A stretch of DNA of 64,000 bases. It comes from a virus (lineage: Duplodnaviria > Heunggongvirae > Uroviricota > Caudoviricetes). How positions within the stretch are numbered: the stretch's first letter is position 1; every line of letters begins with the position of its first letter. Below the pieces are notes generated by a model that was not told where the DNA came from, did no database searches, and was given only the letters and a program-made list of their open reading frames with translations. Positions 10,252 to 45,768 of this stretch are shown piece after piece. Position numbers and translations under genes: made by a program. The stretch lies in the IMG/VR virus record IMGVR_UViG_3300033153_006784, positions 10,375 through 74,374 of that record. One strand, 5' to 3'.

Positions 10252-10476
10252 ATGAGTGAAGAAAGACCGAAACATCCACCAAAATTCTGTCCTAACTGTG
10301 GTAAACCCACTACAAATTGTGTTGAACTTATGACAAACTTTAGAGGTAGCATTGTCTGGGATACTTATTGTAAGGGATGTGAGTGGAGTGGCGATATACG
10401 ACCAGACTCAGACCTTGATTACTACCGTGTTGAAGCCCTAGAGACACATAAACGGTTTAGTTCAGTGATTAAATGA
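10252..10476 (+). CDS. Zinc-ribbon protein
   Basis: CPNCG...C and YCKGC pairs. Confidence 0.4.
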   Translation: MSEERPKHPPKFCPNCGKPTTNCVELMTNFRGSIVWDTYCKGCEWSGDIRPDSDLDYYRVEALETHKRFSSVIK

Positions 10477-11979: not shown

Positions 11980-12042
11980 AATGACATAGGAAGTTCCTAA
12001 AAAACAAGCCTGTTAAGCTATAATTACTTCCCGTCAATCCAT

Positions 12043-12723
12043 GTGATAACGATGAGAGAAGTTACGACAAGTATTTTAAAGAATATAGAATATGGAAAAT
12101 ATATACCCGTAATACATAACTATACCAGTAGAGATATTAATATTCAGCGTTCACAAGTTCTGCGAGATTTCTTAATATGGGATGAGACTAAAAGAGGTTT
12201 AGTTGCAGACGTAGGTATAGGTTACGGACAAATGGCAGCAGAATTTGCAAAACTTGGGTGGATGGTTCACGGTTACGATCCAGACCCTTTTCAGTTAGTA
12301 TTATCTGCTACCTATATTAATTACTTATTAGGTCAACCGTACATTGCAAACCTAATTGACATAAGTAAAGAACCATTGCCTTCAATGTACGATTATGTTG
12401 TATGCGGTCAAGTTTTAGAACATATACCAAATGAAGGAGAGGCTTTAAAAAATCTAGCTTCTGGAGTTATGCGTGGAGGGTGGTTGATTATAGATGTACC
12501 TTTGAATGAGACACTTAAAACGACAGATAATCCTCCAAAAGAAGTAGAGACACCGTTCCCAGAGAAATATTATACGTATGATCATTTAAGAACATATACA
12601 GATGCTAAAAGAATTGTGTCACGATTAGAAGAATGTGGATTATCGTATTATAATACAAGAATTATAGAGGGAACAAAACCTGAACCTTGGGAAGTATTAT
12701 TTTTATGGATGCGAAGAAAATGA
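12043..12723 (+). CDS. Class I SAM-dependent methyltransferase
   Basis: VADVGIGYGQMAAEFAKLGWMVHGYDPD (motif I plus the acidic residue). Confidence 0.7.
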   Translation: MITMREVTTSILKNIEYGKYIPVIHNYTSRDINIQRSQVLRDFLIWDETKRGLVADVGIGYGQMAAEFAKLGWMVHGYDPDPFQLVLSATYINYLLGQPYIANLIDISKEPLPSMYDYVVCGQVLEHIPNEGEALKNLASGVMRGGWLIIDVPLNETLKTTDNPPKEVETPFPEKYYTYDHLRTYTDAKRIVSRLEECGLSYYNTRIIEGTKPEPWEVLFLWMRRK

Positions 12724-13170: not shown

Positions 13171-14128
13171 ATGTACAAACATGAGATTTGAAAACGCAGA
13201 AATATTAATTTCTGGCGGTGCTGGATTTATTGGTTCATGGTTATGTGAATACCTCCTAGATGAAGGAGCAAGAGTTATCAGCATCGACAATATGAGTACA
13301 GGTAGTTGGAATAATGTCCGGCACTTAAAAAATAATCCGAATTTTACTCAGTACGTATATGACGTTCAAGACCCAAAAATAGTAGATGATTTCAAGGTAG
13401 CATGCTTTGATATTGTAATGCATTTTGCATCCCTTGCGTCACCATTCCACTTTCCAGAATATCCCATTGAAATTCTAGATACGAATCTTTTGGGAACGAG
13501 AAATATGTTAGAGATTGCACGTTCTAGTGACGCTAGATTTATGTTTGCATCTACAAGTGAAGTATATGGAGATACAGATGTTATTCCTATTCCTGAAACT
13601 TATAGAGGTAACGTAAATCTTGAAGGTGTCAGAGGGTGCTATGACGAAGGTAAACGTGGCGGAGAAGCATACTGCTACGCATATAAAAGAAAATATGACT
13701 TGGATGTTCGCATTGCGAGAATATTTAATACATACGGTGAACGGATGCCGAAAGATAGGAGAGTTGTGCCTAACTTTTTAGGGAGAGCGTTGGCAGGTAA
13801 ACCTTTACACATCTTTGGAGATGGTACACAAACAAGAGCATATATGTACATCGAAGATTTAATTGAAGGGTTACTCTTACTGTTAGAGGCTGAAGATATG
13901 TCCGGGATACCAGTAAATCTTGGACAACAAAAGGAAACCACAGTCCTGAACTTGGCAGAAATAGTTCTGAATCTTACAAAGAGTAAGTCCGATCTTGAGT
14001 ACCACCCGCTCCCTGAAGACGACCCGAAGAGACGACTACCTGACATCACTAGAGCTAGAGAAATGCTTGGATGGGAACCTATTATCGATCTGAACGAAGG
14101 CATACGTAGAACCCTTGAAGAATGGTAA
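13171..14128 (+). CDS. UDP-glucuronate decarboxylase (UDP-xylose synthase)-like NAD-dependent epimerase/dehydratase
   Basis: GGAGFIGSWL Rossmann motif, YxxxK, and the near-exact UXS block RIARIFNTYGERM. The likely start is MRFENAEIL at 13171, although the ORF frame opens at 13094. Confidence 0.85.
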
Positions 14129-14159: not shown

Positions 14160-14231
14160 GTCGCTATAGCCTAATGGGAGAGCGGGAGGCTGTTAACCTT
14201 CGAGGAGTGGGTTCGATTCCTACTAGCGACG
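14160..14231 (+). tRNA. tRNA-Asn (GTT)
   Basis: Acceptor gtcgcta/tagcgac, anticodon arm ggagg-ctGTTaa-ccttc, T-arm gtggg-ttcgatt-cctac. Confidence 0.8.
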
Positions 14232-17879: not shown

Positions 17880-18029
17880 GCCTTGGTGAACGGTGAACTA
17901 ACGAAGGGAAAGTATAAGTCACATGGACTTTAACTTGTCGAGTAATTACGGAACTGAATGGAGTTCAAAGAGCTTGCTTCCTGTCATGTAAGGGAAGTAA
18001 TGATGTGGGTTCAATTCCCACCCAAGGTA
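17880..18029 (+). ncRNA. tRNA-like element of about 150 nt with a canonical T-arm and paired termini, possibly an intron-containing or noncanonical tRNA
   Basis: T-arm gtggg-ttcaatt-cccac, then ccaaggt pairing with gccttgg at 17880. Internal hairpin cttcc-tgtcatgtaag-ggaag (11-nt loop containing TCA). No clean cloverleaf could be built by eye. Confidence 0.3.
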
Positions 18030-18041
18030 TCACAAATATTT

Positions 18042-19882: not shown

Positions 19883-20052
19883 AGCCGGAGTAGCACAGTG
19901 GTAGTGCGTCTCCCTTGTAGCGGAGATGGAAAAAGGTAGTAGTCCTTAACACCTTGGTATATAGGTTTTGGAAGTTATGAGACGAACCCACCCTCATATA
20001 TGCCCCGCAAGATAGGAGATGGTCGGGTGTTCGATCCACCCTTCCGGCCCCA
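19883..20052 (+). tRNA. tRNA-Thr (TGT) with an intron of about 95 nt in the anticodon loop, CCA encoded
   Basis: Acceptor gccggag/ttccggc, D-arm gcac-agtggta-gtgc, anticodon stem tctcc with loop ctTGTa. The intron runs about 19919-20013 and begins gcggaga, which is complementary to the anticodon stem. The 3' anticodon stem ggaga follows, then T-arm gggtg-ttcgatc-caccc and CCA. Confidence 0.65.
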
Positions 20053-20165: not shown

Positions 20166-20489
20166 ATGAGACTCAAAGACAATACTGATAGTGAAGCTGT
20201 TCAATTTCTCAGGAAATATGTAACAGATACACATGAAGAATACTACAAAATATTGTTGCGAGATGTTGAAACTTGGGATGCTTGGGATCGAACATACGCT
20301 GAATATTACAGTCCTAAACATTGGAAAGAAGCAGACATGCAAGCATTGTGTGTAGAAGCACATCAGATTTGTTGGGACACAGGAGATTTCGGTGAATCAA
20401 AACTAACATTTGTGTATGAACTGGTCAAAAAAAGAGGTTGGAGAGTCGTACTCGAAACGTTTAAATGTACGAAAGAACACTCACATTAG
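20166..20489 (+). CDS. Hypothetical protein
   Basis: ORF only. Confidence 0.35.
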   Translation: MRLKDNTDSEAVQFLRKYVTDTHEEYYKILLRDVETWDAWDRTYAEYYSPKHWKEADMQALCVEAHQICWDTGDFGESKLTFVYELVKKRGWRVVLETFKCTKEHSH

Positions 20490-20572: not shown

Positions 20573-20647
20573 AGCCCTATAGCTTAATGGAAAAGTGCTC
20601 TCCTTATAAGGGAGTGAGTATCGGTTCGATTCCGGTTAGGGCTACCA
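20573..20647 (+). tRNA. tRNA-Ile (TAT, AUA-decoding), CCA encoded
   Basis: Acceptor agcccta/tagggct (perfect), anticodon arm ctctc-ctTATaa-gggag, T-arm atcgg-ttcgatt-ccggt, CCA. Confidence 0.65.
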
Positions 20648-23025: not shown

Positions 23026-23102
23026 AGTCCTATCGTCTAGTGGACAAGGATACCGGGCTTTGAACCCGGAGATCGTGAGTTCGAATCTCTCTAGGACTAC
23101 CA
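23026..23102 (+). tRNA. tRNA-Gln (TTG), CCA encoded
   Basis: Acceptor agtccta/taggact (perfect), anticodon arm ccggg-ctTTGaa-cccgg, T-loop ttcgaat, CCA. Confidence 0.75.
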
Positions 23103-23142
23103 CTCACCAATACCTTTAAATATAACATTTTATATAATCTGT

Positions 23143-30345: not shown

Positions 30346-30479
30346 AAATATACCGCTAACTCAATTAGTATATAAAGGAAACAGGTATATATCGAATTTT
30401 AGATATATCTCTATTGTCGATCCTTTATATACTATAGCTACATATACATTTATATATGAGTCCTGTACAATATACTGGT

Positions 30480-30665
30480 AGTGAGATAGAACAGTCAGGT
30501 AGTTCGCAAGGCTCATAATAGGGGCAAGAGTGTAAGTAGGCCAACCTTGGATGATGGACACTGGAAACGGTGCTGAACGATTAATTCAAGGCTCTCACCA
30601 TTCTCTCCAATGAGAAACCTTGAGGCGGTAATCCGGTTCCGGAGGTTCAAATCCTCCTCTCGCTA
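30480..30665 (+). tRNA. Intron-containing tRNA with anticodon CAU (Met or Ile2-type) and an extended variable region
   Basis: Acceptor agtgaga/tctcgct, D-arm gaac-agtcaggta-gttc, anticodon stem caagg with loop ctCATa. A roughly 100-nt insert ends in ...aATGAGaa, complementary to the anticodon loop (anticodon-intron pairing). Then the 3' stem ccttg, an 18-nt variable region and T-arm ggagg-ttcaaat-cctcc. No CCA. Identity uncertain. Confidence 0.45.
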
Positions 30666-30677
30666 CCTTTAAGTTAT

Positions 30678-30752
30678 AGCTCTGTAGCTTAATGGTCAAA
30701 GCGGGTGGTTGAAGTCCACTTGTACCATGTTCGATTCATGGCAGGGCCACCA
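30678..30752 (+). tRNA. tRNA-Phe (GAA), CCA encoded
   Basis: D-arm gctt-aatggtca-aagc, anticodon arm ggtgg-ttGAAgt-ccact, T-arm ccatg-ttcgatt-catgg, CCA. Pair 1-72 is an A/C mismatch. Confidence 0.75.
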
Positions 30753-30757
30753 TCAAT

Positions 30758-30834
30758 GGGTGTGTAACTTAGTCAGGTAGAGTATCAGGCTCTTAACTTG
30801 AAGGTCGGGAGTTCAAATCTCTCCATGCCCGCCA
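30758..30834 (+). tRNA. tRNA-Lys (CTT), CCA encoded
   Basis: Acceptor gggtgtg/catgccc with two G.U pairs, anticodon arm tcagg-ctCTTaa-cttga, T-arm gggag-ttcaaat-ctctc, CCA. Confidence 0.7.
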
Positions 30835-30840
30835 AGTCAA

Positions 30841-30916
30841 CTGGATGTAGCAAAATGGTTAATGCATTGGTCTGTAGAGCCAAAAGGTGCAGGTTCGAAT
30901 CCCGCCATCCAGACCA
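30841..30916 (+). tRNA. tRNA-Tyr (GTA), type I (short variable arm), CCA encoded
   Basis: Acceptor ctggatg/catccag (perfect), anticodon arm ttggt-ctGTAga-gccaa, 5-nt variable loop, T-loop ttcgaat, CCA. Confidence 0.75.
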
Positions 30917-45602: not shown

Positions 45603-45768
45603 GACGGGTTAGCCAAGTCTGGCCGTAAGGCGTTACACTGCTAAGCAGGACGAAACTCGAAAGCAGGGCGATACTTGAATCAGAACGAAACTGGAACGGT
45701 CTGCACAGAAATGTAATCACTCCGTAACCAATCGGAGTGCAGGGGTTCAAATCCCCTACCCGTCGCCA
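45603..45768 (+). tRNA. tRNA-Ser (GCT), type II, with an intron of about 67 nt, CCA encoded
   Basis: Acceptor gacgggt/acccgtc (perfect), anticodon stem ttaca/tgtaa with loop ctGCTa(a). Insert about 45644-45710. Long variable arm cactccg-taaccaat-cggagtg, T-arm agggg-ttcaaat-cccct, CCA. Confidence 0.65.

Follow-up and report, generated by a model that had tools for sequence, protein, structure and literature searches.

The stretch of DNA analysed here (the window) comprises 64,000 nucleotides (nt), positions 10,375 to 74,374 of the virus record IMGVR_UViG_3300033153_006784. At 30480-30667 it carries a transfer RNA (tRNA) gene with the anticodon CAU, interrupted by an intron and extended in its variable region. 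This gene probably encodes a functional, virus-borne pre-tRNA of archaeal type, most likely a tRNA-Met, whose intron would be spliced and whose small fifth arm would be kept, as judged from sequence and predicted structure. An earlier note, made from the sequence alone, had described a spliced tRNA at this site with a CAU anticodon and an intron of about 100 nt. The gene is real and matches that observation in all details: run with intron detection, ARAGORN places a tRNA-Met(cat) at 30480-30667, 89 nt in its mature form including CC, with an intron of 99 nt. Because of this intron, the gene is missed by default ARAGORN, which returns 17 tRNA genes window-wide and none at 30480-30667, and by Rfam, which reports only the three downstream tRNAs at the cluster.

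Anatomy of the tRNA(CAU) gene and its splicing motif

The elements of the gene and of the cluster to which it belongs are listed below (BHB, bulge-helix-bulge; ARAGORN -i, ARAGORN with intron detection).

30449-30456, + strand: TATA-like box TTTATATA, a putative archaeal promoter for the four clustered genes, at -31 from the mature 5' end (sequence reading)
30480-30517, + strand: 5' exon, with the acceptor 5' strand, D arm, anticodon stem 5' strand and nt 32-37 (ARAGORN -i, fold)
30512-30524, + strand: BHB 5' half, with central CUCA (30512-30515), bulge UA/A (30516-30518) and inner UAGGGG (30519-30524) (hand reading, scored)
30514-30516, + strand: anticodon CAT (ARAGORN -i)
30518-30616, + strand: intron, 99 nt, at the canonical position 37/38 (ARAGORN -i, fold)
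30605-30617, + strand: BHB 3' half, with inner CUCCAA (30605-30610), central UGAG (30611-30614) and bulge AA/A (30615-30617) (hand reading, scored)
30617-30665, + strand: 3' exon, with A38, the anticodon stem 3' strand, variable region, T arm, acceptor 3' strand and A73 (ARAGORN -i, fold)
30626-30638, + strand: variable-loop insertion CGGUAAUCCGGUU, 13 nt, hairpin CGG-UAAU-CCG (alignment, fold)
30678-30916, + strand: rest of the cluster, tRNA-Phe(GAA), tRNA-Lys(CUU) and tRNA-Tyr(GUA), each with an encoded CCA (ARAGORN, Rfam)

Every stem of the tRNA is intact, as are U8, A14, G18G19, the T loop UUCAAAU and the G15/C48 pair. The acceptor stem joins AGUGAGA (30480-30486) to UCUCGCU (30658-30664) with a U3.G70 wobble, the D arm consists of GAAC/GUUC closing the loop AGUCAGGUA, which is nearly identical to the D loop of the neighbouring tRNA-Lys, and the anticodon stem pairs CAAGG (30507-30511) with CCUUG (30618-30622). 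The T arm, GGAGG-UUCAAAU-CCUCC, occupies 30641-30657. The discriminator A at 30665 is followed by CCT, and CCA is not encoded. In the minimum free energy (MFE) fold of the precursor, the acceptor, D and T arms all form, the anticodon helix is extended and a small hairpin makes up a fifth element; the spliced 87-mer adopts a five-arm cloverleaf in which the MFE and centroid structures are the same (z = -2.1). As had been noted earlier, the gene stands first in a Met-Phe-Lys-Tyr cluster, with spacers of approximately 10, 5 and 6 nt. To note, the acceptor stem of tRNA-Phe(GAA) (30678-30752) is topped by an A1xC72 mismatch and is non-canonical according to Rfam, and two arms of 14 nt, TAGTATATAAAGGA / TCCTTTATATACTA (30366-30379 / 30421-30434), form a perfect inverted repeat within the AT-rich spacer that precedes the cluster, with further, imperfect palindromes nearby.

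BHB introns at position 37/38 are textbook archaeal biology. Judged on its sequence, the Met intron is a near-perfect example of the archaeal hBHBh' splicing type and would follow the ordinary archaeal mechanism. Its central helix is formed by four Watson-Crick pairs out of four (CUCA:UGAG), between an outer helix of 5 bp provided by the anticodon stem and an inner helix with 5 of 6 pairs; the predicted cleavage sites, 30517/30518 and 30616/30617, fall within the bulges. Among 200,000 shuffles of the intron, 0.5% yield the four Watson-Crick central pairs and 0.01% yield these together with the inner helix. The complementarity between the intron 3' end (UGAG, 30611-30614) and the anticodon loop (CUCA, 30512-30515), which the earlier note had pointed out as the classic anticodon-intron helix, holds as a pairing; the generic label can be made more precise, this being the central helix of the canonical archaeal hBHBh' motif.

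Bacterial tRNA(CAU) genes can hold group I introns, and an intron-containing tRNA-Tyr is known from giant viruses of eukaryotes. The probability that the Met intron is a self-splicing group I intron of bacterial or phage type, or a nuclear-type intron from a giant virus of eukaryotes, is nevertheless practically nil. With 99 nt it has about half the length of the smallest group I introns, the core of which (P3-P9) expects some 200 nt or more; no Rfam family matches the intron, and no group I model does even at E <= 10. The BHB geometry is exact, and the window possesses an HK97-type terminase and tail genes and no genes of nucleocytoplasmic large DNA viruses. The intron contains an internal hairpin with an 8-bp stem, CCUUGGAU/AUUCAAGG. 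It is not of the C/D-box small RNA type, the sR38 model reaching 11.4 bits for a gathering score of 50 in Rfam; by eye, one C-like box (AUGAUGG, for a RUGAUGA consensus) and one D-like box (CUGA) are found 15 nt apart, with no C'/D pair.

In the maturation pathway that these features suggest, transcription would start from the TATA-box promoter about 31 nt upstream, probably jointly with Phe, Lys and Tyr, and the ends would be trimmed by RNase P and RNase Z. The intron and the anticodon loop would fold into the canonical hBHBh', the splicing endonuclease EndA of the host would cut both 3-nt bulges at the sites given above, and an RtcB-type ligase would join the exons and probably circularise the intron. 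CCA completion and charging by the methionyl-tRNA synthetase (MetRS) of the host, via CAU and A73, would follow. A Pfam scan of 40 of the 53 window open reading frames (ORFs), those of at least 150 amino acids, detects no EndA, RtcB or Rnl, which suggests that host enzymes perform the splicing.

The inserted arm and the identity of the tRNA

The variable region covers 30623-30640 in the ARAGORN intron-mode call, that is, the 18 nt announced by the earlier note. In an alignment of six CAU tRNAs, the window molecule is collinear with the others save for one clean insertion of 13 nt at 30626-30638, which none of the other CAU tRNAs compared carries. A repeated or mobile hairpin was considered and rejected: no second copy of it is found in the window.

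The origin of the insertion is best appreciated from the relatives of the virus. Homologues of its family B DNA polymerase (PolB) with 51-61% identity are encoded on syntenic metagenomic contigs, two of which come from Loki's Castle deep-sea sediment assemblies. One Loki's Castle relative, L006, is approximately 65% identical to the window, and contig L021 differs from it by one base. Both carry a syntenic CAU tRNA, located between Gly/Arg and Tyr, with A1:U72 and a 106-nt intron at 37/38; the central helix of its BHB has 3 of 4 pairs, and its outer and inner helices have 5 each. This intron bears no obvious resemblance to that of the window by inspection, without alignment, and it is devoid of C/D boxes as well. 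The L006 variable loop is an ordinary 5-nt AGGUC. The CAU tRNAs of L007 and L010 have no intron and short variable loops, and no CAU tRNA is present in the retrieved DNA of L009, L013, L016-L019 and L071-L073; L006/L021 is the sole intron-bearing CAU orthologue among the relatives. Three further candidates (L001, L002 and L070) were discarded as false positives, each corresponding to two adjacent intronless tRNAs in bacteriophages. On these sequences, the position of the CAU intron is conserved in part of the clade and the long variable region is private to the window lineage. Since the loop of the L006 orthologue is normal, the long variable region was acquired recently by this lineage alone and does not characterise the family.

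The 13-nt hairpin most likely stays as a fifth arm of a mature 87-nt tRNA. A scan of every splice-site pair within 30618-30646, with a 4-bp central helix, 3-nt bulges and a flanking helix required, finds no BHB, relaxed ones included, whose excision would keep the T arm and the variable loop valid; retention of the insertion is therefore probable. The variable loop is the sole position of a tRNA that is architecturally tolerant of an extra arm. The tRNA-Tyr of L012 (2522-2608), which has the archaeal C1:G72, harbors a plain hairpin, GCUC-UUCG-GAGC, inserted in its variable loop; this second class I tRNA of the clade with an added arm suggests that such insertions recur and are presumably tolerated. 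By way of speculation, the insertion might stem from a decayed partial copy of a T arm, as GGCGGU-AAUCCG resembles, by eye, the L006 T arm GGCGGUUCAAAUCCG.

A second small intron had been envisaged in the earlier note to explain the long variable region, and the exhaustive scan of splice-site pairs gave nothing usable for it. In a wider version of this idea, the 13 nt would be a second, non-canonical intron removed by an endonuclease of broad specificity, yielding an ordinary 74-nt tRNA-Met. Excision of 30626-30638 does give back a standard 5-nt loop, and the sediment and soil archaea Atabeyarchaeia and Freyarchaeia carry introns in more than 90% of their tRNA genes, many of which have more than one, also outside the canonical sites; relatives of the virus come from Loki's Castle sediment. 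This second intron is nonetheless unlikely, given the lack of a suitable BHB and the fact that the insertion folds as a plain hairpin, as does that of the L012 tRNA-Tyr. With the pseudogene reading, the insertion would instead have inactivated the gene, which would be decaying and would persist since the lineage is young. The uniqueness of the insertion to this lineage is in keeping with such a fate, and so is the 3' end, CCT, whereas the three downstream genes encode CCA. A pseudogene is quite unlikely, however, as the stems and conserved tertiary nucleotides are intact, the BHB is near perfect, the promoter-like box is kept, and no other gene decodes Met in a set that serves at least 18 amino acids.

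Concerning the amino acid, CAU is the main determinant for Met, Haloferax included, and the window has a single CAU tRNA. This anticodon is shared by Met and by tRNA-Ile2, in which C34 is converted by TiaS to agmatidine to read AUA, a codon that is probably frequent in a genome with 35.8% GC. A tRNA-Ile(UAU) is encoded at 20573-20647, so that Ile2 is not needed, and no other CAU tRNA would be left for Met; to our knowledge, A1:U72 is not an Ile2 trait. Ile2 is thus very unlikely. The earlier note had also entertained a suppressor-like or recoding tRNA, and in this reading the long arm and A73 would make the molecule a substrate of the leucyl- or seryl-tRNA synthetase (LeuRS or SerRS), AUG being read as Leu or Ser. 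A73 and a long variable arm are indeed the Leu determinants in Haloferax, nematode nev-tRNAs combine a variable arm with anticodons of neither Leu nor Ser (PMC3333845), and the 18-nt variable region, with its CGG-UAAU-CCG hairpin, exceeds the 10 nt that mark class II tRNAs. The body of the molecule is of class I, with a 4-bp D stem and a 9-nt D loop next to its CAU anticodon, and it aligns from end to end with ordinary Met tRNAs; the window's own tRNA-Ser has the 3-bp D stem and enlarged D loop of a class II body. The arm is short (3 bp and the tetraloop UAAU) and lacks the A47c/G47d bases reported for archaeal (Haloferax) LeuRS, G73, required for Ser, is absent, and the orthologue has no arm. 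Recoding is hardly credible on these grounds and is not supported.

Several observations weigh against a functional five-armed tRNA-Met. The folding energy of the precursor is no better than that of shuffles (z = -0.67). The sole other copy of the gene is on L003, which is the same virus (99.85% identical), so that nothing points to selection for the added arm. A long variable arm is seldom found on a class I body, and this one could impair folding or binding to MetRS or the elongation factor. The assignment to initiator or elongator is also divided: the A1:U72 pair of initiators is present (A30480 x U30664), as in the L006 orthologue and also in Gln and Ile tRNAs of the clade, yet of the three G:C pairs at 29-31:39-41 the molecule has only G30:C40 and G31:C39.

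Anticodon cassettes in serine and leucine tRNA introns

The tRNA-Ser gene of the window also possesses a BHB intron, with canonical splice sites at 45643/45644 and 45710/45711, and it has counterparts in four relatives. The introns of these genes hold units arranged in tandem, each approximately 20 nt long and following the pattern 'A CU NGA A', in which the variable N yields the remaining cognate Ser anticodons, with no repeats within a gene and never A34.

45603-45768, + strand, window: tRNA-Ser, exon GCU (45640-45642), cassettes CGA (45658-45660), UGA (45676-45678) and GGA (45693-45695)
2479-2706, L007: exon GCU, cassettes UGA, CGA and GGA
20332-20486, L006: exon GCU, cassettes UGA and GGA
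13566-13746, L012: exon GCU, cassettes UGA and GGA
12024-12167, L069 (a 156-kb IMG/VR contig): exon GCU, cassettes UGA and GGA

We lean towards the view, based on comparative sequence, that the class II tRNA introns of this clade drive alternative splicing in cis, through which the window Ser gene would deliver the GCU, CGA, UGA and GGA isoacceptors, and the Leu genes of relatives likewise. A BHB scan indicates that the cassette elements form alternative strict BHBs with a common 5' splice site at 30/31, which in the window lies after 45636, the alternative 3' sites being located before 45655, 45673 and 45690. The 5' site would join one of these three 3' sites, and a second BHB would remove the remainder. 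In 11 of the 12 Ser cassettes, 4 nt complementary to exon nt 25-28 stand before the cassette at exactly the spacing of the bulge; further 5' comes GCAG, which can pair with nt 32-35 of the exon loop, CUGC (in L007, GCGG and CCGC, respectively).

The central helix of this first step covaries between loci: CGUU faces GACG, GGCG or AACG, CACC or CACU faces GGUG, AGCC faces GGCU, and CGCC faces GGCG or GGUG. All 44 cells are paired, and each of the 4 pairs is changed on both sides between loci. None of 500 shuffles reaches the covariation score, and sliding the register makes pairing fall from 92% to 29-43%. The use of any of the alternative sites necessarily alters the anticodon, hence selection on the pairing implies selection for the alternative tRNAs. 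The second-step BHB, at 37/38 of the cassette, has an outer helix of 4-7 bp, 2-4 of 4 central pairs and usually an inner helix; as nt 34 and 35 of its central helix vary, this motif is a relaxed one. The doubly spliced anticodon arms are correct, as exemplified by UUACA-CUCGAAA-UGUAA. One caveat is the third cassette of L007, which has CACC in place of GGUG upstream.

Leu genes of the relatives, which would switch UAA to UAG or CAA in the same manner, are less regular than the Ser genes. In the L007 tRNA-Leu(UAA) (2206-2346), removal of a strict 19-nt BHB intron would give UAG and leave the downstream BHB unharmed, and a CAA cassette there follows a GGUG that is the complement of the exon CACC. 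One cassette of the L069 tRNA-Leu(UAA) (12180-12335) reads AAG. A search for the cassette pattern in 185,579 species genomes returned only four bacterial chance matches, and in IMG/VR it returned L069 alone; the other contigs retrieved by pattern scans (L064-L068 and L074-L076) were set aside as chance matches. In the full-text literature searched, no cis arrangement of anticodon cassettes in a tRNA is described.

The same logic was applied to the other introns of the window. Nucleotides 30587-30594 of the Met intron are an exact 8-nt copy of the exon CAAGGCUC, followed by UCAC. The resulting CAAGGCUC-UCAC (30587-30598) could supply a CUC (Glu) loop, and tRNA-Glu is not among the tRNAs of the window; this use is weakly compatible with the sequence and barely probable. 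Alternative-anticodon logic was rejected for the Met gene, since, over all in-register positions, a single AU-rich 4-bp helix turns up, of a kind expected by chance in about a quarter of such tests, with flanking helices of 1 bp each, which amount to no flanks. A Ser-like motif of the Met intron, GACACUGGAA, was likewise rejected as a cassette, the exon strand complementary to it being absent. As a separate observation, 30558-30570 reads GGACACUGGAAAC, near the GGA cassette of the L006 Ser gene (GUGACACUGGAAUC), with no convincing BHB for it. The tRNA-Thr intron, described below, holds two similar units, CACC-UU-GGU-AUAUAGG and CACC-CU-CAU-AUAUGCC; no BHB backs either CACC unit, and the cassette logic was not retained for it.

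Viral context and comparison with known systems

The window encodes the large terminase TerL, a tape-measure protein and PolB, together with a PCNA-like clamp, NAD synthase, RlaP and many sugar-modifying enzymes. No close relative is found among deposited phages. In a tblastn search with PolB, 16 of the 19 matching deposited phage records are haloarchaeal tailed viruses, at approximately 22% identity, and a PolB peptide search of IMG/VR gave no relative. The relatives encode the ribosomal protein eS30 (L005, 800-982), a Ro60/TROVE protein (L006, 1-1247), a TFIIB homologue (L071, 602-1495), the tRNA-His guanylyltransferase Thg1 (L072, 2562-3296) and an archaeal-type S-adenosylmethionine (AdoMet) synthase (L007, 4489-5667).

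The tRNA set of the window numbers at least 19 genes, three of which have BHB introns. TATA-like boxes (TTTATATA, TTTATAAA, TTTAAATA and similar) are found 30-31 nt 5' of seven tRNA genes or clusters; besides the Met cluster, they stand before the genes for Asp, Ser, Ile, Gln, Thr and Asn; taken along the window, and not in that order, the genes concerned start at 14160, 19884, 20491, 23026, 27720 and 45603. Their fixed distance fits archaeal promoters producing almost leaderless pre-tRNAs, a function that the sequences suggest. The tRNA-Tyr is of class I, with no long arm, and has C1:G72, the archaeal/eukaryal Tyr identity pair. Taken together, the BHB introns, the PCNA-like protein, the TATA boxes, the Tyr C1:G72 and the TFIIB, Thg1 and eS30 of the relatives identify the window, at the level of sequence features, as an uncultured archaeal tailed virus.

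The third intron-bearing gene and other tRNA-like features complete this picture.

19884-20052, + strand: tRNA-Thr(UGU) with a 94-nt intron (19920-20013), BHB CUUG:CAAG, bulges UA/G and AU/A (ARAGORN -i, BHB scoring)

The Thr intron is also positioned at 37/38, with a perfect canonical BHB, and the gene is missed by default ARAGORN. Just 5' of tRNA-Trp, at 17880-18033, lies a tRNA-like element with acceptor-like strands GCCUUGG/CCAAGGU and a good T arm, GUGGG-UUCAAUU-CCCAC; its interior of about 100 nt has no clear structure and contains GGUGAAC twice, and ARAGORN makes no call there. It may be a heavily disrupted tRNA gene, the window having no Leu or Glu tRNA. At 23026-23118, two ARAGORN calls overlap, one on the + strand for tRNA-Gln(UUG) and one on the - strand for tRNA-Arg(UCG); the second of these is probably a mirror artefact. 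The tRNA-Ile(UAU) gene adjoins tRNA-Ile(GAU) and represents a rare AUA-reading route that spares an agmatidine-modified CAU tRNA. In the relatives L006 and L010, several intron genes are mis-parsed by ARAGORN (loci 8888-8976 and 8037-8210; 6932-7091): the L006 Gly(UCC) has a 17-nt canonical BHB intron, an L006 gene called 'Ser(tga)' is an Ala(UGC) with a 102-nt intron, and the L010 Gly(UCC) has an 89-nt intron.

The flagged gene is of a known kind. Its setting is uncommon: a clade of low-GC viruses of sediment type in which several tRNA genes bear introns of about 70-100 nt. Archaeal pre-tRNAs with hBHBh' introns at 37/38, surveyed by Marck and Grosjean (2003), include, for example, Haloferax tRNA-Trp and elongator tRNA-Met. 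The window gene shares with them the intron position, the two 3-nt bulges, the 4-bp helix between nt 32-35 and the intron 3' end, an intron length within the known range and, presumably, the EndA/RtcB pathway; unlike them, it is viral, its intron has no recognisable C/D guide and it bears an extra variable arm. Among viruses, the haloarchaeal tailed virus HGTV-1 has 34-36 tRNAs, one with an intron (PMC13532342, PMC8651126). Both are archaeal tailed viruses with a near-complete tRNA set that includes an intron gene, and their PolBs are 22% identical. In contrast to HGTV-1, the window is of low GC, is unrelated at the nucleotide level, counts three or more tRNA genes interrupted by introns of some 70-100 nt, and yielded no RtcB or Rnl.

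The unusual variant feature is the class I CAU tRNA bearing an inserted arm. It resembles the nematode nev-tRNAs in combining a long variable arm with an anticodon of neither Leu nor Ser; those molecules have true class II bodies, are conserved phylum-wide and are charged with Leu, whereas the window tRNA has a class I body and a recent insertion without conservation. As for the Ser cassettes, the closest parallel known is the tri-split tRNA-Gly of Caldivirga maquilingensis, assembled by trans-splicing (Fujishima 2009; PMC4390854); its invariant 5' and 3' segments are joined, via BHB motifs, to alternative pieces of the anticodon loop, which gives synonymous isoacceptors. The Caldivirga pieces are separate transcripts joined in trans, whereas the viral Ser pieces lie in cis, in tandem within one intron.

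Its predicted dependence on the archaeal splicing machinery of the host assigns this virus to an archaeal host. In the literature searched for archaeal viruses, a virus clade with several intron tRNA genes adds to the single one of HGTV-1. The extra arm of tRNA(CAU) was inserted in this lineage only, and its significance is unproven; as a naturally occurring class I tRNA-Met with a fifth arm, the molecule would probe how much added structure is tolerated by MetRS, aIF2/aEF1A and the ribosome. If the Ser cassettes are used, they would constitute the first case of alternative splicing setting the anticodon of a single-gene tRNA, a compact coding of a full isoacceptor set in a small genome, and a cis counterpart to the trans-spliced tri-split tRNAs that figure in debates on the origin of tRNA.

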